Source: Nemertoderma westbladi (taxonomy: Eukaryota; Animalia; Xenacoelomorpha). Taken from it: a DNA stretch of 53,538 nucleotides. Numbering within the stretch: position 1 is the first letter of the stretch; every line of letters begins with the position of its first letter. The notes below the pieces were generated by a model. That model worked only from the letters and a program-made list of their open reading frames with translations, was not told the DNA's origin and ran no database searches. The stretch is from contig JAUCBJ010000457.1 in NCBI GenBank assembly GCA_032718475.1, positions 1 to 53,538 on the forward strand. The letters run 5' to 3'. Of this stretch, positions 3,478-41,000 are shown piece after piece. Made by a program: the position numbers and the translations under genes.

Positions 3478-3655
3478 AGTTGTTGATAAGGAACACGAGT
3501 TGCTCTTTCCGGTACTGGAACTCGGCAGCCATCCGCAGTATGAATCCCTCCACCTCCAACTGTAACTCCGCCAAGGCCTTGTGGACTCTTTCGTCCGGGT
3601 AGCTTTCGTTGATACCAACAACAGCCCCCGAGAACTCTGCGTATCTACGGGTTAC
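3452..3655 (-). CDS. VPS52: VPS52 coding exon 10 (gene continues beyond window start)
   Basis: GCAG acceptor; VTRRYAEFSGAVVGINESYPDERVHKALAELQLEVEGFILRMAAEFQYRKEQLVFLINNYDLMLSVLM; ATG|GTAGGT donor; 204 nt. Confidence 0.96.
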
Positions 3656-4311: not shown

Positions 4312-4430
4312 TTGTCAAGAGCGGGAACCTGTCGTTTGTGCATCAATACGCGATACCGGTTAATAATGTGAATCGAGAGGAGTAGTGCTATAGAATCGAA
4401 GCAATCGTTAGTGTACACCTCCATGTGTTT
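4312..4430 (-). CDS. VPS52: VPS52 coding exon 8 (its first 29 nt are the last unit of the 45-bp satellite)
   Basis: TTTTTATTCCTTTTAG acceptor; KHMEVYTNDCFDSIALLLSIHIINRYRVLMHKRQVPALD matches VPS52 KHLDSYLADCYDAIAVFLCIHIV...VPALD; AA|GTAAGT donor; phases fit exons 7 and 9. Confidence 0.93.
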
Positions 4431-7400
4431 CTAAAAGGAATAAAAACAATCGTTAGTGTACACCCCCATGTGTTTCTAAAAGGAATAAAAACAATCGTTA
4501 GTGTACACCTCCATGTGTTTCTAAAAGGAATAAAAACAATCGTTAGTGTGCACCTCCATGTGTTTCTAAAAAAGAAATAAAAACAATCGTTAGTGTACAC
4601 CACCATGTGTTTCTAAAAGGAATAAAAACAATCGTTAGTGTACACCTCCATGTGTTTCTAAAAGGAATAAAAACAATCGTTAGTGTACACCTCCATGTGT
4701 TTCTAAAAGGAATAAAAACAATCGTTAGTGTGCACCTCCATGTGTTTCTAAAAGGAATAAAAACAATCGTTAGTGTACACCTCCATGTGTTTCTAAAAAA
4801 GAAATAAAAACAATCGTTAGTGTACACCACCATGTGTTTCTAAAAGGAATAAAAACAATCGTTAGTGTACACCTCCATGTGTTTCTAAAAGAAATAAAAA
4901 CAATCACACCTCCATGTGTTTCTAAAAGGAATAAAAACAATCGTTAGTGTACACCTCCATGTGTTTCTAAAAGGAATAAAAACAATCGTTAGTGTGCACC
5001 TCCATGTGTTTCTAAAAGGAATAAAAACAATCGTTAGTGTACACCTCCATGTGTTTCTAAAAAAGAAATAAAAACAATCGTTAGTGTACACCACCATGTG
5101 TTTCTAAAAGGAATAAAAACAATCGTTAGTGTACACCTCCATGTGTTTCTAAAAGAAATAAAAACAATCGTTAGTGTACACCTCCATGTGTTTCTAAAAG
5201 GAATAAAAACAACATTGCTAATGTACAGTACACCTCCATGTGTTTCTAAAAGGAATAAAAACAATCGTTAGTGTACACCCCCATGTGTTTCTAAAAGGAA
5301 TAAAAACAATCGTTAGTGTACACCTCCATGTGTTTCTAAAAGGAATAAAAACAATCGTTAGTGTGCACCTCCATGTGTTTCTAAAAGGAATAAAAACAAT
5401 CGTTAGTGTACACCTCCATGTGTTTCTAAAAGGAATAAAAACAATCGTTAGTGTGCACCTCCATGTGTTTCTAAAAGGAATAAAAACAATCGTTAGTGTA
5501 CACCTCCATGTGTTTCTAAAAAAGAAATAAAAACAATCGTTAGTGTACACCACCATGTGTTTCTAAAAGGAATAAAAACAATCGTTAGTGTACACCTCCA
5601 TGTGTTTCTAAAAGAAATAAAAACAATCACACCTCCATGTGTTTCTAAAAGGAATAAAAACAATCGTTAGTGTACACCTCCATGTGTTTCTAAAAGGAAT
5701 AAAAACAATCGTTAGTGTGCACCTCCATGTGTTTCTAAAAGGAATAAAAACAATCGTTAGTGTACACCTCCATGTGTTTCTAAAAAAGAAATAAAAACAA
5801 TCGTTAGTGTACACCACCATGTGTTTCTAAAAGGAATAAAAACAATCGTTAGTGTACACCTCCATGTGTTTCTAAAAGAAATAAAAACAATCGTTAGTGT
5901 ACACCTCCATGTGTTTCTAAAAGGAATAAAAACAATCGTTAGTGTACACCCCCATGTGTTTCTAAAAGGAATAAAAACAATCGTTAGTGTACACCTCCAT
6001 GTGTTTCTAAAAGGAATAAAAACAATCGTTAGTGTACACCCCCATGTGTTTCTAAAAGGAATAAAAACAATCGTTAGTGTACACCTCCATGTGTTTCTAA
6101 AAGGAATAAAAACAATCGTTAGTGTGCACCTCCATGTGTTTCTAAAAGGAATAAAAACAATCGTTAGTGTACACCTCCATGTGTTTCTAAAAGGAATAAA
6201 AACAATCGTTAGTGTGCACCTCCATGTGTTTCTAAAAGGAATAAAAACAATCGTTAGTGTACACCTCCATGTGTTTCTAAAAAAGAAATAAAAACAATCG
6301 TTAGTGTACACCACCATGTGTTTCTAAAAGGAATAAAAACAATCGTTAGTGTACACCTCCATGTGTTTCTAAAAGAAATAAAAACAATCACACCTCCATG
6401 TGTTTCTAAAAGGAATAAAAACAATCGTTAGTGTACACCTCCATGTGTTTCTAAAAGGAATAAAAACAATCGTTAGTGTGCACCTCCATGTGTTTCTAAA
6501 AGGAATAAAAACAATCGTTAGTGTACACCTCCATGTGTTTCTAAAAAAGAAATAAAAACAATCGTTAGTGTACACCACCATGTGTTTCTAAAAGGAATAA
6601 AAACAATCGTTAGTGTACACCTCCATGTGTTTCTAAAAGAAATAAAAACAATCGTTAGTGTACACCTCCATGTGTTTCTAAAAGGAATAAAAACAACATT
6701 GCTAATGTACAGTACACCTCCATGTGTTTCTAAAAGGAATATTAGTGTACACCCCCATGAGTGTTTCTAAAAGGAATAAAACAATCGTTAGTGTACACCT
6801 CCATGTGTTTCTAAAAGGAATAAAAACAATCGTTAGTGTGCACCTCCATGTGTTTCTAAAAGGAATAAAAACAATCGTTAGTGTACACCTCCATGTGTTT
6901 CTAAAAGGAATAAAAACAATATTGCTAATGTACAGTACACCTCCATGTGTTTCTAAAAGGAATATTAGTGTACACCCCCATGAGTGTTTCTAAAAGGAAT
7001 AAAACAATCGTTAGTGTACACCTCCATGTGTTTCTAAAAGGAATAAAAACAATCGTTAGTGTACACCACCATGTGTATCTAAAAGAAATAAAAACAATCG
7101 TTAGTGTACACCTCCATGTGTTTCTAAAAGGAATAAAAACAATATTGCTAATGTACAGTACACCTCCATGTGTTTCTAAAAGGAATATTAGTGTACACCC
7201 CCATGAGTGTTTCTAAAAGGAATAAAACAATCGTTAGTGTACACCTCCATGTGTTTCTAAAAGGAATAAAAACAATCGTTAGTGTGCACCTCCATGTGTT
7301 TCTAAAAGGAATAAAAACAATCGTTAGTGTACACCTCCATGTGTTTCTAAAAGGAATAAAAACAATATTGCTAATGTACAGTACACCTCCATGTGTTTCT

Positions 7401-10400
7401 AAAAGGAATATTAGTGTACACCCCCATGAGTGTTTCTAAAAGGAATAAAACAATCGTTAGTGTACACCTCCATGTGTTTCTAAAAGGAATAAAAACAATC
7501 GTTAGTGTGCACCTCCATGTGTTTCTAACAGGAATAAAAACAATCGTTAGTGTACACCTCCATGTGTTTCTAAAAGGAATAAAAACAATATTGCTAATGT
7601 ACAGTACACCTCCATGTGTTTCTAAAAGAAATAAAAACTTAGTGTACACCTCCATGAGTGTTTCTAAAAGGAATAAAACAATCGTTAGTGTACACCTCCA
7701 TGTGTTTCTAAAAGGAATAAAAACAATCGTTAGTGTGCACCTCCATGTGTTTCTAAAAGAAATAAAAACAATCGTTAGTGTACACCTCCATGTGTTTCTA
7801 AAAGGAATAAAAACAATCGTTAGTGTACACCACCATGTGTTTCTAAAAGGAATAAAAACAATATTGCTAATGTACAGTACACCTCCATGTGTTTCTAAAA
7901 GAAATAAAAACAATATTGCTAATGTACAGTACACCTCCATGTGTTTCTAAAAGGAATAAAAACAATATTGCTAATGTACAGTACACCTCCATGTGTTTCT
8001 AAAAGAAATAAAAACTTAGTGTACACCTCCATGAGTGTTTCTAAAAGGAATAAAACAATCGTTAGTGTACACCTCCATGTGTTTCTAAAAGGAATAAAAA
8101 CAATCGTTAGTGTGCACCTCCATGTGTTTCTAAAAGGAATAAAAACAATCGTTAGTGTACACCTCCATGTGTTTCTAAAAGGAATAAAAACAATATTGCT
8201 AATGTACAGTACACCTCCATGTGTTTCTAAAAGAAATAAAAACGTAGTGTACACCTCCATGAGTGTTTCTAAAAGGAATAAAACAATCGTTAGTGTACAC
8301 CTCCATGTGTTTCTAAAAGGAATAAAAACAATCGTTAGTGTGCACCTCCATGTGTTTCTAAAAGGAATAAAAACAATCGTTAGTGTACACCTCCATGTGT
8401 TTCTAAAAGGAATAAAAACAATATTGCTAATGTACAGTACACCTCCATGTGTTTCTAAAAGAAATAAAAACTTAGTGTACACCTCCATGAGTGTTTCTAA
8501 AAGGAATAAAACAATCGTTAGTGTACACCTCCATGTGTTTCTAAAAGGAATAAAAACAATCGTTAGTGTGCACCTCCATGTGTTTCTAAAAGGAATAAAA
8601 ACAATCGTTAGTGTACACCACCATGTGTTTCTAAAAGGAATAAAAACAATATTGCTAATGTACAGTACACTACACCTCCATGTGTTTCTAAAAGAAATAA
8701 AAACAATCGTTAGTGTACACCTCCATGAGTGTTTCTAAAAGGAATAAAACAATCGTTAGTGTACACCCCCATGTGTTTCTAAAAGGAATAAAAACAATCG
8801 TTAGTGTGCACCTCCATGTGTTTCTAAAAGGAATTAAAACAATCGTTAGTGTGCACCTCCATGTGTTTCTAAAAGGAATAAAAACAATCGTTAGTGTACA
8901 CCTCCATGTGTTTCTAAAAGGAATAAAAGCAATCGTTAGTGTGCACCTCCATGTGTTTCTAAAAGGAATAAAAACAATCGTTAGTGTACACCTCCATGTG
9001 TTTCTAAAAGGAATAAAAACAATCGTTAATGTGCACCTCCATGTGTTTCTAAAAGGAATAAAAACAATCGTTAGTGTACACCTCCATGTGTTTCTAAAAG
9101 GAATAAAAACAACCGTTAGTGTACACCTCCATGTGTTTCTAAAAGAAATAAAAACAATCGTTAGTGTACACCTCCATGTGTTTCTAAAAGGAATAAAAAC
9201 AATCGTCAGTGTACACCTCCATGTGTTTCTAAAAGGAATAAAAACAATCGTCAGTGTACACCCCCATGTGTTTCTAAAAGGAATAAAAACAATCGTTAGT
9301 GTGCACCTCCATGTGTTTCTAAAAGGAATTAAAACAATCGTTAGTGTGCACCTCCATGTGTTTCTAAAAGGAATAAAAACAATCGTTAGTGTACACCTCC
9401 ATGTGTTTCTAAAAGGAATAAAAGCAATCGTTAGTGTGCACCTCCATGTGTTTCTAAAAGGAATAAAAACAATCGTTAGTGTACACCTCCATGGGTTTCT
9501 AAAAGGAATAAAAACAATCGTTAGTGTACACCTCCATGTGTTTCTAAAAGGAATAAAAACAATCGTTAGTGTACACCTCCATGTGTTTCTAAAAGGAATA
9601 AAAACAATATTGCTAATGTACAGTACACCTCCATGTGTTTCTAAAAGGAATAAAAACAATCGTTAGTGTACACCTCCATGTGTTTCTAAAAGAAATAAAA
9701 ACTTAGTGTACACCTCCATGAGTGTTTCTAAAAGGAATAAAACAATCGTTAGTGTACACCTCCATGTGTTTCTAAAAGGAATAAAAACAATCGTTAGTGT
9801 GCACCTCCATGTGTTTCTAAAAGGAATAAAAACAATCGTCAGTGTACACCTCCATGTGTTTCTAAAAGGAATAAAAACAATCGTTAGTGTACACCTCCAT
9901 GGGTTTCTAAAAGGAATAAAAACAATCGTTAGTGTACACCTCCATGTGTTTCTAATTGGAATAAAAACAATCGTTAGTGTACACCTCCATGGGTTTCTAA
10001 AAGGAATAAAAACAATCGTTAGTGTACACCACCATGTTTTCTAAAAGGAATAAAAACAATCGTTAGTGTACACCTCCATGAGTGTTTCTAAAAGGAATAA
10101 AACAATCGTTAGTGTACACCTCCATGTGTTTCTAAAAGGAATAAAAACAATCGTTAGTGTACACCTCCATGTGTTTCTAAAAGGAATAAAAACAATCGTC
10201 AGTGTACACCTCCATGTGTTTCTAAAAGGAATAAAAACAATCGTTAGTGTACACCTCCATGAGTGTTTCTAAAAGGAATAAAACAATCGTTAGCGTACAC
10301 CTCCATGGGTTTCTAAAAGGAATAAAAACAATCGTTAGTGTACACCTCCATGTGTTTCTAAAAGGAATAAAAACAATCGTCAGTGTACACCTCCATGTGT

Positions 10401-13400
10401 TTCTAAAAAAGAAATAAAAACAATCGTTAGTGTACACAACCATGTGTTTCTAAAAAAAGAAATAAAAACAATCGTTAGTGTACACCACCATGTTTTCTAA
10501 AAGGAATAAAAACAATCGTTAGTGTACACCTCCATGAGTGTTTCTAAAAGGAATAAAAACAATCGTTAGTGTACACCTCCATGGGTTTCTAAAATGAATA
10601 AAAACAATCGTTAGTGTACACCTCCATGTGTTTCTAAAAGGAATAAAAACAATCGTTAGTGTACACCTCCATGTGTTTCTAAAAGGAATAAAAACAATCG
10701 TTAGTGTACACCTCCATGTGTTTCTAAAAGGAATAAAACAATGGCTAATGTACACCTCCATGTGTTTCTAAAAGGAATAAAAACAATGACTATAATGTAC
10801 ACATCGATGTGTTTCTAAAAGGAATAAAAACAATATTGCTAATGTACAGTACACCTCCATTTGTTTCTAAAAGAAATAAGAACAATCGTTAGTGTACACC
10901 ACCATGTGTCTCTAAAAGGAATACAAACAATCGTTAGTGTACACCTCCATGTGTTTCTAAAAGGAATAAAAACAATCGTTAGTGTGCACCTCCATGTGTT
11001 TCTAAAAGGAATAAAAACAATATTGCTAATGTACAGTACACCTCCATGTGTTTCTAAAAGAAATAAAAACAATCGTTAGTGTACACCTCCATGGTGTTTC
11101 TAAGAGGAATAAAACAATCGTTAGTGTACACCCCCATGTGTTTCTAAAAGGAATAAAAACAATGGCTAATGTACACATCGATGTGTTTCTAAAAGGAATA
11201 AAAACAATGGCTAATGTACACCACCATGTGTTTCTAAAAGGAATAAAAACAATCGTTAGTGTACACCTCCATGTGTTTCTAGAAGGAATAAAAACAATGG
11301 CTAATGTACACCACCCCACCATGTGTTTCTAAAAGGAATAAAAACAATGGCTAATGTACACCACCATGTGTCTCTAAAAGGAATAAAAACAATCGTTAGT
11401 GTACACCTCCATGTGTTTTTAAAAGGAATAAAAACAATGGCTAATGTACACCACCATGTGTCTCTAAAAGGAATAAAAACAATCGTTAGTGTACACCTCC
11501 ATGTGTTTTTAAAAGGAATAAAAACAATGGCTAATGTACACCACCATGTGTCTCTAAAAGGAATAAAAACAATCGTTAGTGTACACCTCCATGGTGTTTC
11601 TAAGAGGAATAAAACAATCGTTAGTGTACACCCCCATGTGTTTCTAAAAGGAATAAAAACAATGGCTAATGTACACATCGATGTGTTTCTAAAAGGAATA
11701 AAAACAATGGCTAATACACCTCCATGTGTTTCTAAAAGGAATAAAAACAATCGTTAGTGTACACCTCCATGTGTTTCTAGAAGGAATAAAAACAATGGCT
11801 AATGTACACCACCCCACCATGTGTTTCTAAAAGGAATAAAAACAATGGCTAATGTACACCACCATGTGTCTCTAAAAGGAATAAAAACAATCGTTAGTGT
11901 ACACCTCCATGGTGTTTCTAAGAGGAATAAAACAATCGTTAGTGTACACCCCCATGTGTTTCTAAAAGGAATAAAAACAATGGCTAATGTACACATCGAT
12001 GTGTTTCTAAAAGGAATAAAAACAATGGCTAATACACCTCCATGTGTTTCTAAAAGGAATAAAAACAATCGTTAGTGTACACCTCCATGTGTTTCTAGAA
12101 GGAATAAAAACAATGGCTAATGTACACCACCCCACCATGTGTTTCTAAAAGGAATAAAAACAATGGCTAATGTACACCACCATGTGTCTCTAAAAGGAAT
12201 AAAAACAATCGTTAGTGTACACCTCCATGTGTTTTTAAAAGGAATAAAAACAATGGCTAATGTACACCACCATGTGTCTCTAAAAGGAATAAAAACAATC
12301 GTTAGTGTACACCTCCATGTGTTTCTAAAAGGAATAAAAACAATGACTAATGTACATCTCCATGTGTTTCTAAAAGGAATAAAAACAATGGCTAATGTAC
12401 AACTCCATGTGTTTCTAAAAGGAATAAAAACAATGGCTAATATACACCTCCACCTCCATGAGTTTCTAAAAGGAATAAAAACAATGGCTAATATACACCT
12501 CAATGTGTTTCTAAAAGGAATAAAAACAATGGCTCATGTACACCTCCATGTGTTTCTAAAAGGAATAAAAACAATGGCTAATATACACCTCCACCTCCAT
12601 GTGTTTCTAAAAGGAATAAAAACAATGGCTAATGTACACCTCCATGTGTTTCTAAAAGGAATAAAAACAATGGCTAATATACACCTCCACCTCCATGTGT
12701 TTCTAAAAGGAATAAAAACAATGGCTAATGTACACCTCCATGTGTTTCTAAAAGGAATAAAGACAATGGCTAATATACACCTCCACCTCCATGTGTTTCT
12801 AAAAGGAATAAAAACAATGGCTAATGTACACCCCAATGTGTTTCTAAAAGGAATAAAAACAATGGCTCATGTACACCTCCATGTGTTTCTAAAAGGAATA
12901 AAAACAATGGCTAATATACACCTCCACCTCCATGTGTTTCTAAAAGGAATACAAACAATCGTTAGTGTACACCTCCATGTGTTTCTAAAAGGAATAAAAG
13001 CAATCGTTAGTGTGCACCTCCATGTGTTTCTAAAAGGAATAAAAACAATCGTTAGTGTACACCTCCATGTGTTTCTAAAAGGAATAAAAACAATCGTTAA
13101 TGTGCACCTCCATGTGTTTCTAAAAGGAATAAAAACAATCGTTAGTGTACACCTCCATGTGTTTCTAAAAGGAATAAAAACAACCGTTAGTGTACACCTC
13201 CATGTGTTTCTAAAAGAAATAAAAACAATCGTTAGTGTACACCTCCATGTGTTTCTAAAAGGAATAAAAACAATCGTCAGTGTACACCTCCATGTGTTTC
13301 TAAAAGGAATAAAAACAATCGTCAGTGTACACCCCCATGTGTTTCTAAAAGGAATAAAAACAATCGTTAGTGTGCACCTCCATGTGTTTCTAAAAGGAAT

Positions 13401-16400
13401 TAAAACAATCGTTAGTGTGCACCTCCATGTGTTTCTAAAAGGAATAAAAACAATCGTTAGTGTACACCTCCATGTGTTTCTAAAAGGAATAAAAGCAATC
13501 GTTAGTGTGCACCGCACCTCCATGTGTTTCTAAAAGGAATAAAAACAATCGTTAGTGTACACCTCCATGGGTTTCTAAAAGGAATAAAAACAATCGTTAG
13601 TGTACACCTCCATGTGTTTCTAAAAGGAATAAAAACAATCGTCAGTGTACACCTCCATGTGTTTCTAAAAGGAATAAAAACAATATTGCTAATGTACAGT
13701 ACACCTCCATGTGTTTCTAAAAGGAATAAAAACAATCGTTAGTGTACACCTCCATGTGTTTCTAAAAGAAATAAAAACTTAGTGTACACCTCCATGAGTG
13801 TTTCTAAAAGGAATAAAACAATCGTTAGTGTACACCTCCATGTGTTTCTAAAAGGAATAAAAACAATCGTTAGTGTGCACCTCCATGTGTTTCTAAAAGG
13901 AATAAAAACAATCGTCAGTGTACACCTCCATGTGTTTCTAAAAGGAATAAAAACAATCGTTAGTGTACACCTCCATGGGTTTCTAAAAGGAATAAAAACA
14001 ATCGTTAGTGTACACCTCCATGTGTTTCTAATTGGAATAAAAACAATCGTTAGTGTACACCTCCATGGGTTTCTAAAAGGAATAAAAACAATCGTTAGTG
14101 TACACCACCATGTTTTCTAAAAGGAATAAAAACAATCGTTAGTGTACACCTCCATGAGTGTTTCTAAAAGGAATAAAACAATCGTTAGTGTACACCTCCA
14201 TGTGTTTCTAAAAGGAATAAAAACAATCGTTAGTGTACACCTCCATGTGTTTCTAAAAGGAATAAAAACAATCGTCAGTGTACACCTCCATGTGTTTCTA
14301 AAAGGAATAAAAACAATCGTTAGTGTACACCTCCATGAGTGTTTCTAAAAGGAATAAAACAATCGTTAGCGTACACCTCCATGGGTTTCTAAAAGGAATA
14401 AAAACAATCGTTAGTGTACACCTCCATGTGTTTCTAAAAGGAATAAAAACAATCGTCAGTGTACACCTCCATGTGTTTCTAAAAAAGAAATAAAAACAAT
14501 CGTTAGTGTACACAACCATGTGTTTCTAAAAAAAGAAATAAAAACAATCGTTAGTGTACACCACCATGTTTTCTAAAAGGAATAAAAACAATCGTTAGTG
14601 TACACCTCCATGAGTGTTTCTAAAAGGAATAAAAACAATCGTTAGTGTACACCTCCATGGGTTTCTAAAATGAATAAAAACAATCGTTAGTGTACACCTC
14701 CATGTGTTTCTAAAAGGAATAAAAACAATCGTTAGTGTACACCTCCATGTGTTTCTAAAAGGAATAAAAACAATCGTTAGTGTACACCTCCATGTGTTTC
14801 TAAAAGGAATAAAACAATGGCTAATGTACACCTCCATGTGTTTCTAAAAGGAATAAAAACAATGACTATAATGTACACATCGATGTGTTTCTAAAAGGAA
14901 TAAAAACAATATTGCTAATGTACAGTACACCTCCATTTGTTTCTAAAAGAAATAAGAACAATCGTTAGTGTACACCACCATGTGTCTCTAAAAGGAATAC
15001 AAACAATCGTTAGTGTACACCTCCATGTGTTTCTAAAAGGAATAAAAACAATCGTTAGTGTGCACCTCCATGTGTTTCTAAAAGGAATAAAAACAATATT
15101 GCTAATGTACAGTACACCTCCATGTGTTTCTAAAAGAAATAAAAACAATCGTTAGTGTACACCTCCATGGTGTTTCTAAGAGGAATAAAACAATCGTTAG
15201 TGTACACCCCCATGTGTTTCTAAAAGGAATAAAAACAATGGCTAATGTACACATCGATGTGTTTCTAAAAGGAATAAAAACAATGGCTAATGTACACCAC
15301 CATGTGTTTCTAAAAGGAATAAAAACAATCGTTAGTGTACACCTCCATGTGTTTCTAGAAGGAATAAAAACAATGGCTAATGTACACCACCCCACCATGT
15401 GTTTCTAAAAGGAATAAAAACAATGGCTAATGTACACCACCATGTGTCTCTAAAAGGAATAAAAACAATCGTTAGTGTACACCTCCATGTGTTTTTAAAA
15501 GGAATAAAAACAATGGCTAATGTACACCACCATGTGTCTCTAAAAGGAATAAAAACAATCGTTAGTGTACACCTCCATGTGTTTTTAAAAGGAATAAAAA
15601 CAATGGCTAATGTACACCACCATGTGTCTCTAAAAGGAATAAAAACAATCGTTAGTGTACACCTCCATGGTGTTTCTAAGAGGAATAAAACAATCGTTAG
15701 TGTACACCCCCATGTGTTTCTAAAAGGAATAAAAACAATGGCTAATGTACACATCGATGTGTTTCTAAAAGGAATAAAAACAATGGCTAATACACCTCCA
15801 TGTGTTTCTAAAAGGAATAAAAACAATCGTTAGTGTACACCTCCATGTGTTTCTAGAAGGAATAAAAACAATGGCTAATGTACACCACCCCACCATGTGT
15901 TTCTAAAAGGAATAAAAACAATGGCTAATGTACACCACCATGTGTCTCTAAAAGGAATAAAAACAATCGTTAGTGTACACCTCCATGGTGTTTCTAAGAG
16001 GAATAAAACAATCGTTAGTGTACACCCCCATGTGTTTCTAAAAGGAATAAAAACAATGGCTAATGTACACATCGATGTGTTTCTAAAAGGAATAAAAACA
16101 ATGGCTAATACACCTCCATGTGTTTCTAAAAGGAATAAAAACAATCGTTAGTGTACACCTCCATGTGTTTCTAGAAGGAATAAAAACAATGGCTAATGTA
16201 CACCACCCCACCATGTGTTTCTAAAAGGAATAAAAACAATGGCTAATGTACACCACCATGTGTCTCTAAAAGGAATAAAAACAATCGTTAGTGTACACCT
16301 CCATGTGTTTTTAAAAGGAATAAAAACAATGGCTAATGTACACCACCATGTGTCTCTAAAAGGAATAAAAACAATCGTTAGTGTACACCTCCATGTGTTT

Positions 16401-19400
16401 CTAAAAGGAATAAAAACAATCGTTAGTGTACACCTCCATGTGTTTCTAGAAGGAATAAAAACAATGGCTAATGTACACCACCCCACCATGTGTTTCTAAA
16501 AGGAATAAAAACAATGGCTAATGTACACCACCATGTGTCTCTAAAAGGAATAAAAACAATCGTTAGTGTACACCTCCATGTGTTTTTAAAAGGAATAAAA
16601 ACAATGGCTAATGTACACCTCCATGTGTTTCTAAAAGGAATAAAAACAATGACTAATGTACATCTCCATGTGTTTCTAAAAGGAATAAAAACAATGGCTA
16701 ATGTACAACTCCATGTGTTTCTAAAAGGAATAAAAACAATGGCTAATATACACCTCCACCTCCATGAGTTTCTAAAAGGAATAAAAACAATGGCTAATAT
16801 ACACCTCAATGTGTTTCTAAAAGGAATAAAAACAATGGCTCATGTACACCTCCATGTGTTTCTAAAAGGAATAAAAACAATGGCTAATATACACCTCCAC
16901 CTCCATGTGTTTCTAAAAGGAATAAAAACAATGGCTAATGTACACCTCCATGTGTTTCTAAAAGGAATAAAAACAATGGCTAATATACACCTCCACCTCC
17001 ATGTGTTTCTAAAAGGAATAAAAACAATGGCTAATGTACACCTCCATGTGTTTCTAAAAGGAATAAAGACAATGGCTAATATACACCTCCACCTCCATGT
17101 GTTTCTAAAAGGAATAAAAACAATGGCTAATGTACACCCCAATGTGTTTCTAAAAGGAATAAAAACAATGGCTCATGTACACCTCCATGTGTTTCTAAAA
17201 GGAATAAAAACAATGGCTAATATACACCTCCACCTCCATGTGTTTCTAAAAGGAATACAAACAATCGTTAGTGTACACCTCCATGTGTTTCTAAAACGAA
17301 TAAAAACAATCGTTAGTGTACACCTCCATGGTGTTTCTAAGAGGAATAAAACAATCGTTAGTGTACACCCCCATGTGTTTCTAAAAGGAATAAAAACAAT
17401 GGCTAATGTACACATCGATGTGTTTCTAAAAGGAATAAAAACAATGGCTAATACACCTCCATGTGTTTCTAAAAGGAATAAAAACAATCGTTAGTGTACA
17501 CCTCCATGTGTTTCTAGAAGGAATAAAAACAATGGCTAATGTACACCACCCCACCATGTGTTTCTAAAAGGAATAAAAACAATGGCTAATGTACACCACC
17601 ATGTGTCTCTAAAAGGAATAAAAACAATCGTTAGTGTACACCTCCATGTGTTTTTAAAAGGAATAAAAACAATGGCTAATGTACACCACCATGTGTCTCT
17701 AAAAGGAATAAAAACAATCGTTAGTGTACACCTCCATGGTGTTTCTAAGAGGAATAAAACAATCGTTAGTGTACACCCCCATGTGTTTCTAAAAGGAATA
17801 AAAACAATGGCTAATGTACACATCGATGTGTTTCTAAAAGGAATAAAAACAATGGCTAATACACCTCCATGTGTTTCTAAAAGGAATAAAAACAATCGTT
17901 AGTGTACACCTCCATGTGTTTCTAGAAGGAATAAAAACAATGGCTAATGTACACCACCCCACCATGTGTTTCTAAAAGGAATAAAAACAATGGCTAATGT
18001 ACACCACCATGTGTCTCTAAAAGGAATAAAAACAATCGTTAGTGTACACCTCCATGTGTTTTTAAAAGGAATAAAAACAATGGCTAATGTACACCACCAT
18101 GTGTCTCTAAAAGGAATAAAAACAATCGTTAGTGTACACCTCCATGTGTTTCTAAAAGGAATAAAAACAATGACTAATGTACATCTCCATGTGTTTCTAA
18201 AAGGAATAAAAACAATGGCTAATGTACATCTCCATGTGTTTCTAAAAGGAATAAAAACAATGGCTAATGTACACCACCATGTGTCTCTAAAAGGAATAAA
18301 AACAATCGTTAGTGTACACCTCCATGTGTTTTTAAAAGGAATAAAAACAATGGCTAATGTACACCACCATGTGTCTCTAAAAGGAATAAAAACAATCGTT
18401 AGTGTACACCTCCATGGTGTTTCTAAGAGGAATAAAACAATCGTTAGTGTACTGTACACCCCCATGTGTTTCTAAAAGGAATAAAAACAATGGCTAATGT
18501 ACACATCGATGTGTTTCTAAAAGGAATAAAAACAATGGCTAATACACCTCCATGTGTTTCTAAAAGGAATAAAAACAATCGTTAGTGTACACCTCCATGT
18601 GTTTCTAGAAGGAATAAAAACAATGGCTAATGTACACCACCCCACCATGTGTTTCTAAAAGGAATAAAAACAATGGCTAATGTACACCACCATGTGTCTC
18701 TAAAAGGAATAAAAACAATCGTTAGTGTACACCTCCATGTGTTTTTAAAAGGAATAAAAACAATGGCTAATGTACACCACCATGTGTCTCTAAAAGGAAT
18801 AAAAACAATCGTTAGTGTACACCTCCATGTGTTTCTAAAAGAAATAAAAACAATCGTTAGTGTACACCTCCATGTGTTTCTAAAAGGAATAAAAACAATG
18901 ACTAATGTACATCTCCATGTGTTTCTAAAAGGAATAAAAACAATGGCTAATATACACCTCCACCTCCATGAGTTTCTAAAAGGAATAAAAACAATGGCTA
19001 ATATACACCTCAATGTGTTTCTAAAAGGAATAAAAACAATGGCTCATGTACACCTCCATGTGTTTCTAAAAGGAATAAAAACAATGGCTAATATACACCT
19101 CCACCTCCATGAGTTTCTAAAAGGAATAAAAACAATGGCTAATATACACCTCAATGTGTTTCTAAAAGGAATAAAAACAATGGCTCATGTACACCTCCAT
19201 GTGTTTCTAAAAGGAATAAAAACAATGGCTAATATACACCTCCACCTCCATGTGTTTCTAAAAGGAATAAAAACAATGGCTAATGTACACCTCCATGTGT
19301 TTCTAAAAGGAATAAAAACAATGGCTAATATACACCTCCACCTCCATGTGTTTCTAAAAGGAATAAAAACAATGGCTCATGTACACCTCCATGTGTTTCT

Positions 19401-20284
19401 AAAAGGAATAAAAACAATGGCTAATATACACCTCCACCTCCATGTGTTTCTAAAAGGAATACAAACAATCGTTAGTGTACACCTCCATGTGTTTCTAAAA
19501 CGAATAAAAACAATGGCTAATGTACACCTCCATGTGTTTCTAAAAGGAATAAAAACAATGGCTAATGTACACCTCCATGTGTCTCTAAAAGGAATAAAAA
19601 CAATCGTAAGTGTACACCACCATGTGTTTCTAAAAGGAATAAAAACAATGGCTAATATACACCTCCACCTCCATGTGTTTCTAAAAGGAATAAAAACAAT
19701 GGCTAATGTACACCTCAATGTGTTTCTAAAAGGAATAAAAACAATGGCTCATGTACACCTCCATGTGTTTCTAAAAGGAATAAAAACAATGGCTAATATA
19801 CACCTCCACCTCCATGTGTTTCTAAAAGGAATACAAACAATCGTTAGTGTACACCTCCATGTGTTTCTAAAACGAATAAAAACAATGGCTAATGTACACC
19901 TCCATGTGTTTCTAAAAGGAATAAAAACAATGGCTAATGTACACCTCCATGTGTCTCTAAAAGGAATAAAAACAATCGTAAGTGTACACCACCATGTGTT
20001 TCTAAAAGGAATAAAAACAATGGCTCATGTACACCTCCATGTGTTTCTAAAAGGAATAAAAACAATGGCTAATATACACCTCCACCTCCATGTGTTTCTA
20101 AAAGGAATAAAAACAATGGCTAATATACACCTCTATGTGTTTCTTAACGGAATAAATACAACCGTTAGTGTACACCACCATGTGTTTCTAAAAGGAATAA
20201 AAACAATGGCTAATATACACCTCTATGTGTTTCTTAACGGAATAAATACAACCGTTAGTGTACGCCACCATGTGTTTCTAAAAA
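4402..20284 (-). repeat. 45-bp satellite, ~350 copies of the VPS52 intron-7 acceptor plus exon-8 start, with higher-order repeats
   Basis: Minus-strand unit TTTTTATTCCTTTTAG|AAACACATGGAGGTGTACACTAACGATTG; ~15.9 kb; the last copy runs into unique exon-8 sequence. Confidence 0.98.
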
Positions 20285-20573
20285 TCTAACACCACAATCC
20301 GTCCTTTCTGTTTGACCCCGGAACTAAAAGTAAGAAAATTAGTAAATTATGAATCAATAAGATAACGTTATATTATTAGAATAAAACGAATCAAAGTCCA
20401 AAGTCTATTATGAATTGGCATTGTTTTATAATTTAAGGTTGATCTATAAAATTAAATTATTAATTAAAATGATTTCAAAATAATTATCAGTTGGCCAAAA
20501 CTTAAAAACAAAACGTTAAAGATTTAATAAATTTGTTCGCATAAGGAAATTTATCCAAGAGAGAGAGAATAAT

Positions 20574-21041
20574 ATGGAGGGGAATTTCGATGAGTCAACA
20601 GAAAGTAAAAGTTGCGTCAAAAACAAAAGACAACCAAGTGAATCCTATAGACTGTCTGGTAGAGCAAAGTTATCTATCTTCGGGGGTTTTATAATCCACA
20701 CAACCTTGGGAGTCATCTACACATTCGGTAACATCAGCCCCTATATGGTTTCCTACATGAGAGCACGAACTTATTCGAAGTTACTTAACGATGAAACCAT
20801 GGTTTGGTCTTCCGGTTTAACCTCAATAGCGTACAGCATCGGGTGTCCGCTAGGGGGCGTTATGGCGTCCCGTTGGGGGAGCCGTGCGCCCGTGGCTCTT
20901 GGCTCCGTTATTATGAGTCTATCTCTGTCCGCCACGTATCTCACCATCCAACACGGAGTCGCCCCGACGCTGTTAACTTACGGTTTCCTCGCGGGTATCG
21001 GTTCCGGGATCATGTACGTGCCGCCATTCGTGATGGCCCAG
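20574..21041 (+). CDS. Nested MFS transporter (oxalate:formate antiporter / monocarboxylate-like), exon 1
   Basis: GGFIIHTTLGVIYTFGNISPYMVSYM, GGVMASRWGSR and YGFLAGIGSGIMY are typical of N-half MFS helices; 156 codons ending CAG|GT. Confidence 0.88.
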
Positions 21042-21044
21042 GTC

Positions 21045-21371
21045 ACCTGTCCCCAATCCTTACACTACTAGAAATAAAGTTAAGTAAATGGTTATTCGGA
21101 TTGGTTAATGAGCTCTACGTTGATTGGATGCTGAAATCGTATAAATAATATTGGGACGGTAGAACTAACAGTAGGGCGTGCTTTCACACCGTTGGCATAA
21201 AAAATACTCCAAAAGCTGTAAAGTCAAAGCCGCGGTGCATTTGAAATACCGACAGTGCAGGTTTTTTTAGACTTTGTAAGGAAAGTAAGTGAGGTACAGC
21301 CCAACAACCAATTCCAGACTCAGATTCAATAGCTGTGTTTCTAGTATATAGAGTAAGGATTGGGAATATGC
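21045..21371. mobile_element. Introner-like TIR element forming MFS intron 1 (intron 21042-21377)
   Basis: 9-bp direct repeat GCCCAGGTC at 21036-21044 and 21372-21380; ~37-41-bp imperfect inverted repeats immediately inside (CCCAATCCTTACACTACTAGAAA / TTTCTAGTATATAGAGTAAGGATTGGG). Confidence 0.85.
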
Positions 21372-21377
21372 GCCCAG

Positions 21378-21608
21378 GTCTGGATGAGTCGACGCAAGGG
21401 ATTGGCCAGCGGGTTGGTGCTGAGCGGGTTCGGAGTCGGTGGGTTCGTATTCGACCAGATCCAGACGTACTTCGTGAACCCGGGGAATCTGTCGCCCGAT
21501 CTCCGGGATCCGGTGGATCCCGGTTCGGTTTACTTCGGACAGCCAGAGATCCTCGACCGAGTTCCCTACTGCTTTCTACTCTTAGGCGGATGTTACGCAG
21601 TGTTACAG
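21378..21608 (+). CDS. Nested MFS transporter, exon 2
   Basis: VWMSRRKGLASGLVLSGFGVGGFVFDQIQTYFVNP...DRVPYCFLLLGGCYAVLQ; the RKGLASG...GFG motif fits the family; 77 codons. The 3' boundary depends on a non-canonical donor. Confidence 0.85.
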
Positions 21609-21958
21609 GGCCGTTACTGAATGTTAACGATGTTACCGAACACAAAGCGAATGTTGCCAAGTCAAAAAATAATAGGTTGCTTTGCTACTAAAAACAAACA
21701 TTTTAAGAAAAAATTTACAAACATCTAATGTAAACAAACAGGAGTTTGAGTTAACAAAACAATTATCTGTTTGGCTATGAAACAAACCATCACTAGCATT
21801 CCCATCGTCTCACTATGTTGTTTTTTGTTATGAAAATTACACATTACTTTGAAATAAATATGTAACCTTTTATCCTTTTGAATCATCACAACTGGCACTC
21901 AATTAATTCGCGTCGGTTAGGTGTCCCTCGTTATCAATCAGTAAACGCGAATAATCAG
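21609..21958 (+). other. MFS intron 2 with terminal inverted repeats and probable non-canonical GG donor
   Basis: Joining LQ|IIGICL requires CAG|GGCCGT...AATCAG|ATA; arms ~21611-21652 and ~21906-21950 are imperfectly reverse-complementary (CGTTACTGAATGTTAACGA / TCGTTATCAATCAGTAAACG). Confidence 0.65.
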
Positions 21959-22675
21959 ATAATCGGTATCTGTTTAATAAAAGATCGATACCCGATATCG
22001 AAAAGTGATGAGACAACGAGATTAATCGAAAACCACGACGATATTAAACCGAAAGCCATGTTAAAAACATCCTTCTTCTACCAAACCTACTATATCAGCA
22101 TGATGTTCCATCTAGTCAGCGGCTTCCTTAACTCGTTGTACAAAACTTACGGAGAGACTTTCGTCCGGGACGACCACTTCTTGGCGATCATGGGATCCGC
22201 TAGTTGTGCGGCAAACTGTCTCGGGCGGATTACTTTCGGACACATCGGCGACAAGTTTGGTATGAAATCGACCCTGGTGTCCCTCCTAGCGGCCTACTCC
22301 GTCTTCTCTACCACGATGTATTTGACCCCGTATGGCGGCCGGTGGATGCTCCTCGTATGGGTTTGGGTCACCTCGCTGACTATGACCGGAATGACCGCCA
22401 TACTGCCGCCCATGATAACGGCCCAATACGGGTCCGCCCACGCTAATATCAACTACAGTCTGGTTTGTAACGCGGTTCTGCTCTCTGGGATTCTGTCTCC
22501 CTTGTTGTCCACCACAATCCAGCTACATCTGGGGTGGCCGCCCTCGTTTATCACGTGCGGAGCCTTACTCGCAATATGCATGCCCGTTGCCATGGCAATG
22601 AGATACAGAGGCGACGTCATACCATCACCATTGGTTATAAATACTATTCCAGAAACCGATATAGAGCCCATATAG
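21959..22675 (+). CDS. Nested MFS transporter, exon 3 (spliced protein ~471 aa)
   Basis: KPKAMLKTSFFY, YKTYGETFVRDDHFLAIMGS, GRITFGHIGDKFG (MFS motif A-like), YGSAHANINYS; TAG stop at 22675. Confidence 0.9.
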   Translation: MIGICLIKDRYPISKSDETTRLIENHDDIKPKAMLKTSFFYQTYYISMMFHLVSGFLNSLYKTYGETFVRDDHFLAIMGSASCAANCLGRITFGHIGDKFGMKSTLVSLLAAYSVFSTTMYLTPYGGRWMLLVWVWVTSLTMTGMTAILPPMITAQYGSAHANINYSLVCNAVLLSGILSPLLSTTIQLHLGWPPSFITCGALLAICMPVAMAMRYRGDVIPSPLVINTIPETDIEPI

Positions 22676-22701
22676 ACAGCGGGATGACGCATTGTGCAAT
22701 C

Positions 22702-22707
22702 AATAAA
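22702..22707 (+). terminator. Putative polyadenylation signal of the nested MFS gene
   Basis: AATAAA 27 nt after the stop codon. Confidence 0.5.
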
Positions 22708-22741
22708 CGTATTAATGGACCCTATTAATGGTACAACAGGT

Positions 22742-23047
22742 ACTTAAATTATAACTTTTGTTGGGCACAGCTTTCAATGTTGGCAATGACGTCCAGGTGG
22801 GATCGAACTTGTGACATCCGAGTTGGAAGTCTGACGCTCTAACCATTCAGCTAGCGGCTCAGGTAAAATATAGACCTGGACATACTATCTGATACCTTGT
22901 ATGTCCGCAATTTACCTCCTTATGGCCTCCCATCTGCCAACACCATCATCTCCTGCAACTGTGCTCAACCCTACAGTACTTGGCCGTCTTGGTGGGATCA
23001 CAATGCCGACTTTGCCAAGCTGTGCCAAACAAAGTTATAATAAAAGT
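22742..23047. mobile_element. ~306-bp fold-back/MITE-like element
   Basis: ~50-bp imperfect inverted ends (ACTTAAATTATAACTTTTGTTGGGCACAGCTT... / ...AAGCTGTGCCAAACAAAGTTATAATAAAAGT); no clean TSD. Confidence 0.6.
22791..22860 (-). pseudogene. tRNA-derived sequence (tRNA-Gly(TCC)-like SINE head or pseudo-tRNA)
   Basis: GAGCCGCTAGCTGAATGGTTAGAGCGTCAGACTTCCAACTCGGATGTCACAAGTTCGATCC: A box, CT-TCC-AA loop and B box present; the acceptor stem does not pair. Confidence 0.65.
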
Positions 23048-23213
23048 TAAACAATCTATTGGATTAGTTTTTTGTGGGGGCGGTGGGATATTGATCTATG
23101 GATTGTCTAGATAAATCCTAACGAAGTAACAACCGAACTATAGGCACAGCTAAATGGTAGATTGTCATTAAAACCCAAAAAAATATTTAATCCACTCAAC
23201 ATAATATACTTAC

Positions 23214-35096: not shown

Positions 35097-38000
35097 GATG
35101 ATAGAGGATGTTTTTTAACCGCCGCAAGGCGGAAAAGGGCTTTAGCCCTCACTAACCACTACCACCGCCTCACCCAATTCAATAAACGGGGAACTATATA
35201 CGGAAAAGGGTATACTTGGGCGAGTTAGGGTATAAGGGAGCGCTTAGGGGGGAAGCCGACTATCCCAGTAGGTGGATAGACCCCCTATTAACTTTCTAAA
35301 TTTTGATTTCGAGCGAATCCGACCGACGGTTTTCGAGTTGGGCCCAATGGAACGTTTTAGAAATTTGAATTTCCCGCCAAAAGCTACAGCCGAGCTACAG
35401 CCAAACTGGCTATAGATGGAGACTAGCGGCCAACGGGATCGCGTAGGGGGTATAGATGTTAGTCCAGCTCATTCTTTTTTTGGAACGACTCGACCTATAG
35501 GGGCCGATCGGTAGCTGATCGAACACGATCTTTACGATCTTTGGCGAAATACGACCGGAAGGAGTGGGAATTTGAGAAAAGTTTGAAAGTAGAAAATGTT
35601 CCTCATCCCCGAATTATGCTAGACGGACCCGATAAAAATATGAAAAAAATTAATTCTAGGGGGTCTACGGGGCCAACGAAGCTTTCCGATTGGACGATAT
35701 TATTTTCGCCTATTACTACGGGAAGGAACGGTTTTAAGTTAAAACATGTACAAGAGATATGGTCGGGAAGCTCGAGCTCTATCCAACGGAAGCGGTCCCG
35801 GGATCGTAAATTAACAAGTTCTCGAGATATAGAGGAAAATTAACGAGTCGTTAAAAAATGCAGCAATTAGCAATTAGCGCTAATTAAGAGCGAATTAATT
35901 AATCGAATCTCGAAATTAACGGTGCCAATCGATGGGAAACAACGAGAGGAGCTCGCCAATTTTTTAAATTTTCAAAAAGACCCAGCGGAAGCCGAGATAA
36001 ATGGATTTTCGTGAAATCGGGGTCCCAACCGCCAAGTCGAATATCAGCATCGAATCGCCACCTTTGGGAAGTAGGCGAAAATATACCGAAAAAGCAAAAC
36101 GAGCGATATTGATTTAAAATTCGAAACTTTTTGGTCGACACGGGCTCGCTAGTGGATGATATACACTATTTTAGTCAATTTGTCCAAAAGGGTCATTTTT
36201 ATTATCTTTGATCATGATCTTTATGATCTTTGGCCTAAAGCATGGAATATGAGTATTTTCATATTTTATATTAATTCATACATTGTACGCAAAGTCTATG
36301 GGGACATTTCCAGACATACTTTCATATTTATCTTTGAAATTTAAATCATTTGTTCACCCAGCCATGCAATGGCTGGGTGAACCACCAAAATATTAAGAGA
36401 TGAAATCCGCAAAGCCTTTAAATACATTATAGGGTGGTGGGTGGGGCTAGTGGTTAGTGTTTATACATAGTTAGGTAATGATTGTATATATAGCGAGTTG
36501 TTAAAAAAGGGAATGGATATAACTTTATGTTACAAAAGACTATGAATTTAGATCTATCGAGTTACGAATATACTCTATCGCCACCTTTTAGCGTAGCGTA
36601 GGGGAGGAATACAATTAGTTGGAATCTATGTGTGGGGAATATAGCGGAACAACTATGTACGAGATACTTCTTCGACTTCTACAGTAGAACAATTAGTATA
36701 GTTCTTTAAACTAATTTTAGAACTCCGTTTACCTACTAAAAAACAAATAAATATAATTAAATTTATAATAATAATAATAATAATAACAAGGTCTACTAAA
36801 ATATACAAGCTATACTGATCAAGAATAAATGATAAAAAAACTCACATCACTGGATGATAGAGGATGTTTTTTAATCGCCGTAAGGCGGAAAAGGGCTTTA
36901 GCCCTCACTAACCGCTACCACCTCCTCACCCAATGCTAAAATCCGGGAATATTGTACCGAAGGGGGTATACTTGGGCGAGTTAGGGTATAAGGGGGCGCT
37001 TAGGGGGGAAGCCGACCATCCCAGTAGGTGGATAGACCCCCTATTAACTTTCTAAATTTTGATTTCGAGCGAATCCGACCGACGGTTTTCGAGTTGGGCC
37101 CAATGGAACGTTTTAGAAATTTGAATTTCCCGCCAAACGCTACAGCCAAACTGGCAATAGATGGAGACTAGCGGCCAACGGGATCGCGTAGGGGGTATAG
37201 ATGTTAGTCCAGCTCATTCTTTTTTTGGAACGACTCGACCTATAGGGGCCGATCGGTAGCTGATCGAACACGATCTTTACGATCTTTGGCGAAATACGAC
37301 CGGAAGGAGTGGGAATTTGGGAAAAGTTTGAAAGTAGAAAATGTTCCTCACCCCCGAATTATGCTAGACGGACCCGATAAAAATTTGAAAAAAATTAATT
37401 CTAGGGGGTCTACGGGGCCAACGAAGCTTTCCGATTGGACGATATTATTTTCGCCTATTACTACGGGAAGGAACGGTTTTAAGTTAAAACATGTACAAGA
37501 GATATGGTCGGGAAGCTCGAGCTCTATCCAACGGAAGCGGTCCCGGGATCGTAAATTAACAAGTTCTAGAGATATAGAGGAAAATTAACGAGTCGTTAAA
37601 AAATGCAGTAATTAGCAATTAGCGCTAATTAAGAGCGAATTAATTAATCGAATCTCGAAATTAACGGTGCCAATCGATGGGAAACAACGAGAGGAGCTCG
37701 CCAATTTTTTACATTTTCGAAAAGACCCAGCGGAAGCCGAGATAAATGGATTTTCGTAAAATCGGGGTCCCGACCACCAAGTCGAATATCGGAGGCGAAT
37801 CACCACCTTTGGGAAATAGGCGAAAATATACCGAAAAAGCAAAACGAGCGATATTGATTTAAAATTCGAAACTTTTTGGTCGATATGGGTTCGCTAGTAG
37901 ACGATATACACTATTTTAGTCAATTTATCCAAAAGGGTCATTTTTATGATATTTGATCATGATCTTTATGATCTTTGGCCTAAAGCATGGAATAAGAGTA

Positions 38001-41000
38001 TTTTTATATTAAATTGTAATTCGTACATTATAAGCAAAGTCTATGGGGACATTGTCAGACATACTTTAAAATTTATCTTTGAAATTTAAATCATTTGTTC
38101 ACCCAGCCATGCAATGGCTGGGTGAACCACCAAAATATTAAGAGATGAAATCCGCAAAGCCTTTAAATACATTATAGGGTGGTGGGCGGGGCTAGTGGTT
38201 AGTGTTTATACATAGTTAGTTAATGATTGTATATGATTGTATATGTATATGATTGTATATATAGCGAGTTGTTAAAAAAGGGAATGGATATAACTATATG
38301 TTACAAAAGACTATGAATTTAGATCTATCGAGTTACGAATATACACTATCGCCACCTTTTAGCGTAGCGTAGGGGAGGAATACAATTAGTTGGAATCTAT
38401 GTATGGGGAATATAGCGGAACAACTATGTACGAGATACTTCTTCGACTAATAGAACAATAACTATAGCTCTTTAAACTAATTCTAGAACTACATTTACCT
38501 ACTAAAAAAACAATTAAATATAAATATAATAATAATAATAATAATAATAATACAAATTAATAATACTAATTAATGAAAAATAAATGATAAAAAAACTATC
38601 ATCACTGGATGATAGAGGATGTTTTTTAATCGCCGCAAGGCGAAAAAGGGCTTTAGCCCTCACTAACCACTACCAATTCCTCACCCAATACTAAAATCCG
38701 GGAATGTGATAGAAAGGGGGTATACTTGGGCGAGTTAGGGTATAAGGGGGCGCTTAGGGGGGAAGCCGACCATCCCAGTAGGTGGATAGACCCCCTATTA
38801 ACTTTCTAAATTTTGATTTCGAGCGAATCCGACCGACGGTTTTCGAGTTGGGCCCAATGGAACGTTTTAGAAATTTGAATTTCCCGCCAAACGCTACAGC
38901 CAAACTGGCAATAGATGGAGACTAGCGGCCAACGGGATCGCGTAGGGGGTATAGATGTTAGTCCAGCTCATTCTTTTTTTGGAACGACTCGACCTATAGG
39001 GGCCGATCGGTAGCTGATCGAACACGATCTTTACGATCTTTGGCGAAATACGACCGGAAGGAGTGGGAATTTGAGAAAAGTTTGAAAGTAGAAAATGTTC
39101 CTCACCCCCGAATTATGCTAGACGGACCCGATAAAAATTTGAAAAAAATTAATTCTAGGGGGTCTACGGGGCCAACGAAGCTTTCCGATTGGACGATATT
39201 ATTTTCGCCTATTACTACGGGAAGGAACGGTTTTAAGTTAAAACATGTACAAGAGATATGGTCGGGAGGCTCGAGCTCTATCCAACGGAAGCGGTCCCGG
39301 AATCGTAAATTAAGAAGTTCTCGAGATATAGAGGATAATTAACGAGTCGTTAAAAAATGCAGTAATTAGCAATTAGCGCTAATTAAGAGCGAATTAATTA
39401 ATCGAATCTCGAAATTAACGGTGCCAATCGATGGGAAACAACGAGAGGAGCTCGCCAATTTTTTAAATTTTCGAAAAGACCCAGCGGAAGCCGAGATAAA
39501 TGGATTTTCGTAAAATCGGGGTCCCGACCACCAAGTCGAATATCGGCGTCGAATCGCCAACTTTGGGAAGTAGGCGAAAATATACCGAAAAAGCAAAACG
39601 AGCGATATTGATTTAAAATTCGAAACTTTTTGGTCGATACGGGTTCGCTAGTGGACGATATACACTATTTTAGTCAATTTATCCAAAAGGGTCATTTTTA
39701 TGATCTTTGATCATGATCTTTATGATCTTTGGCCTAAAGCATGGAATAAGAGTATTTTTATATTAAATTGTAATTCGTACATTATAAGCAAAGTCTATGG
39801 GGACATTTTCAGACATACTTTAAAGTTTATCTTTGAAATTTAAATCATTTGTTCACCCAGCCATGCAATGGCTGGGTGAACCACCAAAATATTAAGCGAT
39901 GAAATCCGCAAAGCCTTTAAATACGTTATAGGGTGGTGGGTGGGGCTAGTGGTTAGTGTTTATACATAGTTAGGTAATGATTGTATATATAGCGAGTTGT
40001 TAAGAAAGGGAATGGGATATAATTTTATGTTACAAAAGACTATGAATTTAGATCTATAGAGTTGTTAAAAAAGGGAATGGGATATAATTTTATGTTACAA
40101 AAGACTATGAATTTAGATCTATAGAGTTACGAATATACACTAACGCCACCTTTTAGCGTAGCGTAGGGGAGGAATACAATTAGTTGGAATCTATGTATGG
40201 GGAATATAGCGGAACAACTATGTACGAGATACTTCTTCGACTAATAGAACAATAACTATAGCTCTTTAAACTAATTCTAGAACTGCATTTACCTACTAAA
40301 AAAAACAATTAAATACTAATTAATGAAAAATAAATGATAAAAAAACTATCATCACTGGATGATAGAGGATGTTTTTTAACCGCCGCAAGGCGGAAAAGGG
40401 CTTTAGCCCTCACTAACCACTACCACCGCCTCACCCAATTCAATAAACGGGGAACTATATACGGAAAAGGGTATACTTGGGCGAGTTAGGGTATAAGGGA
40501 GCGCTTAGGGGGGAAGCCGACTATCCCAGTAGGTGGATAGACCCCCTATTAACTTTCTAAATTTTGATTTCGAGCGAATCCGACCGACGGTTTTCGAGTT
40601 GGGCCCAATGGAACGTTTTAGAAATTTGAATTTCCCGCCAAAAGCTACAGCCGAGCTACAGCCAAACTGGCTATAGATGGAGACTAGCGGCCAACGGGAT
40701 CGCGTAGGGGGTATAGATGTTAGTCCAGCTCATTCTTTTTTTGGAACGACTCGACCTATAGGGGCCGATCGGTAGCTGATCGAACACGATCTTTACGATC
40801 TTTGGCGAAATACGACCGGAAGGAGTGGGAATTTGAGAAAAGTTTGAAAGTAGAAAATGTTCCTCATCCCCGAATTATGCTAGACGGACCCGATAAAAAT
40901 ATGAAAAAAATTAATTCTAGGGGGTCTACGGGGCCAACGAAGCTTTCCGATTGGACGATATTATTTTCGCCTATTACTACGGGAAGGAACGGTTTTAAGT

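Follow-up and report, generated by a model that had tools for sequence, protein, structure and literature searches.

Introns can be gained when a transposon lands on an AG|GT motif and the target-site duplication provides both splice sites. This route is already covered by a review (PMC3443670), and a single case of a transposon-insertion intron has been described in Drosophila (PMC3296678); the duplication gives both sites, the coding sequence is unchanged and the event is a single one. Introners are short non-autonomous elements with inverted ends and a duplication, and in the Florenciella type both splice sites are co-opted. Both Introner surveys demand at least four similar introns (10.1101/2022.06.06.494994, PMC12130899). 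The survey of 2022 recorded transposon-born introns in two groups of animals (10.1101/2022.06.06.494994), to which a sea urchin was added in 2025 (PMC12130899). Singular transposon-derived introns have been reported from many eukaryotes, according to a further review (PMC11282704).

Three other bodies of work bear on the locus described here. Mutator-like elements (MULEs)/Rehavkus have 8–11-bp duplications and long arms of 14–500 bp (PMC6446971). Near-intron pairs of Drosophila combine novel and ancient positions 3 nt apart; no foreign insertion was noted among 31 pairs, and such pairs are usually read as sliding (PMC2891723). GA and GG donors are described from a copepod, Eurytemora affinis, outside of which GG donors are exceedingly rare (PMC5714493). 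A search by title and abstract, with most subscription journals lying outside it, returned no paper in which a transposon takes the place of an ancestral intron.

We analysed a 53,538-nt stretch of Nemertoderma westbladi DNA, hereafter the window, in which an MFS transporter gene carries two inserts. Insert 1 is probably an old transposon, and its sequence predicts removal as an intron. It would follow the AG|GT route; unlike the described cases, it is a decayed TIR element that has no known relatives and lies one codon away from where an ancient intron probably stood. Its build is Introner-like, whereas it was seen in one copy, has decayed arms and is present in all haplotypes seen. Its duplication (9 bp) and arms (about 76 nt) lie within the MULE ranges, but there is no transposase and no autonomous partner, and the termini are imperfect. 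It resembles the Drosophila near-intron pairs in spacing, and differs in that the novel intron bears the hallmarks of a transposon. Insert 2 is best fitted by a GG donor preceded by AG, as in E. affinis; there, position +3 is almost always A, whereas it is C in insert 2, which is one predicted case beside the nine canonical introns of VPS52.

Results

An MFS transporter gene nested in VPS52

On the minus strand of the window, ten VPS52 exons join into one open frame, and 9/9 introns are canonical GT-AG. One VPS52 exon matched VPS52 of molluscs, echinoderms, brachiopods and others at up to 78%, and a quick tree placed the gene loosely beside lancelet and echinoderms (SH-aLRT 94), without strong support. 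The MFS transporter gene lies on the plus strand within a VPS52 intron, comprises three exons and contains Pfam MFS_1 (Table 1). Its homologues, named oxalate:formate antiporter-like or apicoplast pyruvate carrier-like, were obtained by a HMMER library search, and none is close. Word-index protein searches with exon 1 gave no match at near or longer lengths; exon 2 alone as query gave one 18-residue match (L001).

The spliced MFS frame has 472 codons (1,416 nt), is free of stops and shows no frameshift. The protein agrees with 92% of 52 conserved family columns (set median 90%). An alternative haplotype of exon 3 (22190-22591) carries five nonsynonymous changes and one synonymous change, which in this small sample are more compatible with neutrality (P 0.58) than with strong constraint (omega 0.15, P 0.017). 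At residue 311, the Met of the window is found in none of 74 homologues, and the Val of the alternative haplotype in 48. SNP density did not differ significantly between the inserts (7/686) and the exons (6/1416; P 0.14), and both indels placed inside the MFS gene by contigs of public DNA runs fall within the inserts.

Table 1. Coordinates of the features of the MFS gene and its two inserts (positions in the window)
Feature	Position	Strand	Description
VPS52 intron hosting the MFS gene on the opposite strand	4431..23213	-	18.8 kb
MFS exon 1	20574..21041	+	156 codons; oxalate:formate antiporter-like / apicoplast pyruvate carrier-like family
MFS exon 2	21378..21608	+	77 codons
MFS exon 3	21959..22675	+	238 codons and stop
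Predicted intron 1	21042..21377	+	336 nt, GT-AG, phase 0; ranked first among 15 open options on the homologue profile
Left copy of 9-nt direct repeat	21036..21044	+	codons A155-Q156 and GT donor
Insert 1	21045..21371	.	327 nt, AT-rich; likely decayed non-autonomous TIR element
Left inverted arm	21045..21120	+	about 76 nt
Inner motif	21098..21138	.	41 nt; about 85-90% to another genomic repeat with unlike flanks
Right inverted arm	21292..21371	-	about 80 nt
Right copy of 9-nt direct repeat	21372..21380	+	CAG acceptor and codon V157; end = likely ancestral intron position 157|158
Predicted intron 2	21609..21958	+	350 nt; inverted arms; best fit = GG donor
Inverted arms of insert 2	21609-21652 / 21905-21949	.	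about 44 nt, z 6.3

Anatomy of insert 1

The exact 9-bp duplication around a 327-nt insert, on which the initial annotation was built, was confirmed with both of its copies. GCCCAGGTC occurs only at 21036 and 21372 in the 53.5-kb window, 336 nt apart, and the repeat extends in neither direction. Since CAG|GT (5 of the 9 bases) is favoured by splicing itself, the free part of the repeat amounts to 4 bases, for which the chance is about 0.001. The GC content of the insert is 39%, versus 59% in the flanking exons.

Aligned to each other, the arms share 56 identities over 74 aligned columns with 8 gap columns (z 8.4 versus shuffles), that is, they are 24% diverged. The score for end-to-end pairing over 60 nt was reached by none of 2000 dinucleotide shuffles, and none of 206 control windows (330 nt, sliding, folded half on half at their own midpoints) rose above z 2.3. 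Among the nine VPS52 introns, none had paired ends, and junction repeats measured 0–2 nt. The arms of insert 1 abut both repeat copies and run from intron base 4 to 6 bases before the acceptor, so the element spans the whole predicted intron, as it does in Introners. The terminal stem described in the initial annotation is real, but it is longer and more decayed than had been stated. Matches are seen at only 3 of its 7 outermost bases, although the 9-nt duplication is perfect, so that uninterrupted pairing sets in about 10 nt into the intron. Palindromy over the full length was considered for both inserts and ruled out, because their inner halves do not pair (z 1.0 for insert 1 and 0.8 for insert 2).

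In having an 8–11-bp duplication directly outside the arms and long inverted repeats, insert 1 resembles a MULE-type MITE. The length of its duplication is in agreement with the Mutator-type transposase suggested at the outset, but 9 bp alone are no proof of a superfamily.

At the RNA level, folding of the whole inserts was not unusual (z -1.7 and -0.8), and neither stem showed a G-U bias that would be a sign of selection. The mismatch spectrum of the insert 1 stem (3 G-U-type versus 5 A-C-type) lends no support to the idea that the stem juxtaposes the splice sites. No Rfam match was obtained at E 0.1.

Splicing of insert 1 as predicted from the coding frame

We scored the 15 open GT/GC-AG combinations for insert 1 against a profile of 80 homologues. 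The option 21042-21377 ranked highest with 284.9 bits (runner-up 277.0), and 72 of the 75 full-length homologues have no indel across the predicted junction. Its removal in silico leaves ...MAQ-VWMSRRKG in frame, as originally proposed. The splice sites were rated with a matrix built from the nine VPS52 introns, for which leave-one-out ranges were obtained. Both sites fell below these ranges, the donor at -1.5 (VPS52 4.4 to 10.2) and the acceptor at -6.9 (VPS52 -1.7 to 12.8), which bears out their earlier description as weak. Inside the insert lie a strong GT donor at 21285 and two better AG acceptors at 21270 and 21351. The good acceptor at 21270 and the donor at 21285, the strongest of the region, enclose a frame-shifting pseudo-exon of 14 nt (21271-21284).

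When exon drift like that of the arms was simulated, on the premise of originally identical arms and of exons that diverged to the same extent, the frame was stop-free in 3/500 (10%) and 2/500 (13%) of the cases. As drifted frames are so rarely free of stops, the MFS gene likely stayed functional while insert 1 decayed.

A likely intron position one codon away in homologues

Homologues were compared at the protein level, in a register anchored on Tyr at residue 148; a Trp ten residues after Tyr148 is found in the window's register in 125 of 146 homologues. The initial annotation had named an intron at the same position in distant orthologues as the observation that would speak against its reading, and the homologues come close to this. 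Eight of the 146 break into Val right after residue 157, one codon downstream, and continue in unrelated sequence, whereas none does so after residue 156, the window's donor position. These eight stem from a hemichordate, a brachiopod, an ostracod, a horseshoe crab, an acoel and three others. The five named ones are Saccoglossus, Cyprideis, Tachypleus, Convolutriloba and Lingula, and as a set they have the accessions XP_077864687.1, XP_013384216.1, CAG0906459.1, XP_076315108.1 and XP_075241600.1; the other three rows are two clusters and P0083. The Val break likely represents read-through into the phase-0 GT donor of an old bilaterian intron at 157|158, and it is because eight homologues break there into Val that the intron is likely old in bilaterians.

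The 9-nt repeat corresponds exactly to codons 155–157 and thus ends at 157|158. AG|GT at codons 156–157 is its single occurrence in the 1,416-nt coding sequence. None of 152 homologue rows has Val157, and 6 of 154 have Gln156; further on, the window has Ser160 versus Pro in 138 of 146 homologues. If 5–10 ancestral sites are assumed, the chance of being at most 3 nt from one of them is 2.5–5%.

A search for sister copies and empty alleles

We used contigs from three public DNA runs (X1, X2 and X3), which represent two samples that are both possibly the source of the window. Placement on 20900-22100 at at least 80% identity retained 6, 7 and 4 records, respectively, and contigs that singly span this entire stretch are present in X1 and X3. 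A fourth run (X4) covers only 21995-22679 within the MFS gene and was therefore excluded from the evidence on the inserts.

In X1–X3, no contig from outside the locus matched either end of insert 1 at at least 80% identity, so that the sister copies of 21045-21371 anticipated by the initial annotation did not appear among the contigs of these runs. Nor was a joint across insert 1, as expected from an empty allele, present in X1, X2 or X3. A second allele in X2 retains the insert and carries 5 substitutions and 1 indel within it. The sole part of insert 1 that recurs in the three runs is the 41-nt inner motif 21098-21138. The same contig method, applied to a stretch that includes the neighbouring SINE-like repeat, gave over a thousand contigs in each of the three runs. 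Because contigs drop rare variants and the filter omits some records, rare empty alleles or copies below 80% identity are possible. The paired-arm pattern had 0 matches in metagenome contigs, the inner motif had 0 matches in viral contigs, and no similarity was detected between insert 1 and other elements of the window.

The three runs thus yielded one copy of insert 1 where an Introner family calls for at least four similar introns that lie in unrelated genes and resemble each other up to both ends, and neither the multiple dispersed copies nor the empty site by which a MITE is recognized were seen in X1–X3. An undescribed animal Introner family, initially considered possible, is not supported by these runs. 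With no second copy found in them and a likely ancient intron site just one codon away, insert 1 looks like a lone relic rather than a spreading new Introner family.

The second insert of the MFS gene

Insert 2 is unrelated in sequence to insert 1. Its arms start at the first base and stop 9 nt before the exon, and only CAG is repeated at the junction. Among 44 open splice options, a GG donor scored best (458.0 bits; best GT 446.6), and with it 72 of 73 homologues show no indel. One homologue (P0060) out of 120 rows breaks at the same codon. Since Val is an ordinary residue at this codon in 12 others of the 120, the case for an ancestral intron at this site is weak.

Other repeats and elements of the window

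At 4402-20283, a 45-nt unit that consists of the VPS52 acceptor and exon start is repeated 348 times over 15.9 kb. The acceptor-side 13-mer is kept in 250 copies, and a copy translated beside the VPS52 exon ends in an in-frame stop. The array is of the same kind as the 'mirage' minisatellites of amphioxus, but it is very long here (PMC3087553). Arrays at 48317-48989 (33 nt, 20 copies) and 2735-3478 (53 nt, 14 copies) derive from VPS52 exon ends and donors, and the 53-nt copies are 100% identical. A 23-nt array at 1280-1731 has a donor-like motif on the minus strand and is not tied to an exon. Within VPS52 intron 4 (35100-45540), recurrent spacing of short matches points to a unit of about 1.75 kb in apparently about six tandem repeats, which escaped the tandem finder because the period exceeds 500.

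Upstream of the VPS52 start codon, positions 51623-52581 comprise a 941-nt TIR element (51632-52572) with long arms and an exact 9-bp duplication; judged by the length of the duplication, it is a putative Mutator-like element. A TIR element at 49306-50278 in VPS52 intron 2, which starts with GGGGCC and has TTA on both flanks, is presumably PIF/Harbinger-like. Just past the MFS stop codon, a very high-copy short repeat (22750-22990) reaches a summed depth of thousands of times single-copy; it resembles a tRNA-derived SINE.

Discussion

We consider it probable that insert 1 is of transposon origin and is spliced as predicted, by whatever route it arose. As to the route, our tentative preference, which we regard as plausible though short of probable, is an old single-copy non-autonomous Mutator-like MITE that serves as an intron where an older intron had left its scar. 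Several steps would lead from the old intron to the new one, and we infer them all. The family's phase-0 intron at 157|158 may have shifted by one codon, or may have left a CAG|GT footprint at codons 156–157. The element would have inserted at this CAG|GT once the old intron was gone, or else into the donor of the old intron, the remainder of which was deleted afterwards. The 9-bp target-site duplication would have copied CAG|GT, with the left copy becoming the donor and the right copy the acceptor, so that removal is scarless; later, the element would have decayed while the exons remained under selection. The better-preserved element with a 9-bp duplication in the same window (51632-52572) supports the assignment to Mutator-like MITEs. 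Together with the anatomy and the restored frame, this second 9-bp MITE also favours the original view that the duplication supplied both splice sites, while the term 'Introner family' attached to that view is not supported by the three runs. Several observations argue against our preferred reading: both splice sites are far below those of the VPS52 introns, with better sites inside the insert; the alternative exon 3 haplotype fits neutrality better than strong constraint; the outer 7 bases are poorly matched despite the perfect duplication; and neither a transposase nor a sister copy links the insert to MULEs.

All of the transposon evidence (repeat, arms and frame) applies equally to an independent de novo gain, in which a transposon would have hit an exonic AG|GT in an intron-less gene copy and its nearness to the ancestral site would be chance. 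A gene with two introns nested in a VPS52 intron is what a processed copy would give, as is the lack of the family's break clusters near 195–200, 295, 335 and 405, and other rare residues such as Ser160 (Pro in 138/146) are present too. Yet such a gain demands a 2.5–5% coincidence, and insert 2 also coincides with a homologue break (P0060, 1/120 rows); we think it unlikely. The conserved position one codon away would also follow if an ordinary ancestral intron had slid by one codon, with a repeat that combines splice consensus and chance, and with paired ends that either formed within the intron or are retained as an RNA stem that assists weak sites. Near-intron pairs 3 nt apart are typical of sliding (PMC2891723) and flanking repeats of at least 5 bp accompany 26% of conserved Drosophila introns (PMC3443670), and weak sites and paired ends are common to both introns of the MFS gene. 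The 4 free repeat bases, with a chance of about 0.001, the arms flush with the repeat, the missing G-U bias in both stems and the inconspicuous folding of the whole introns (z -1.7, -0.8) nevertheless make plain sliding quite improbable.

A further reading concerns the gene rather than the element: the inserts may be inefficiently spliced, and the MFS gene would then be a recent pseudogene or under relaxed selection. The weak sites and internal competitors of insert 1 point in this direction, as do the GG donor required for the best fit of insert 2, next to VPS52 introns that are 9/9 GT-AG, and the exon 3 haplotypes, in which 5/6 differences are nonsynonymous. Against it, 472 codons are intact and normally conserved whereas the arms differ by 24%, both inserts excise to the exact residue when compared with homologues, and both indels within the gene sit in the inserts, which is why we hold it to be improbable. 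Membership in an active or recent multi-copy Introner family of this animal would be in line with the Introner-like anatomy of insert 1, with two inserts of similar size and build in one gene, and with known families in which the insertion site supplies both splice sites (Gozashti 2022, 10.1101/2022.06.06.494994). It appears very unlikely, given that no other contig in 3 runs matched either end at 80% identity and no empty allele was seen, whereas the neighbouring SINE-like repeat drew over a thousand contigs per run by the same method; moreover, the arms are 24% diverged and the two inserts are unrelated.

A broader speculation, to which we give little credence, is that unrelated MITEs are overwriting old intron positions in this lineage. 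Both introns of the MFS gene would then be hairpin-ended inserts at or next to ancestral positions, one of them with a GG donor, and their terminal stems would help to remove introns with very weak or non-canonical sites. If true, this would be a way in which transposons replace and shift introns, and Introner surveys would miss it since each element exists in a single copy. A GG donor, if verified in intron 2, would be a rare non-canonical example from beyond the copepods.

The scarless case of insert 1 is no new mechanism; it is a useful example because clear transposon-born introns are uncommon in animals. Should genomic alignments confirm the ancient intron one codon away, the locus would be a near-intron pair in which the transposon origin of the new intron is still visible, and it would show concretely how what looks like intron sliding can come about.
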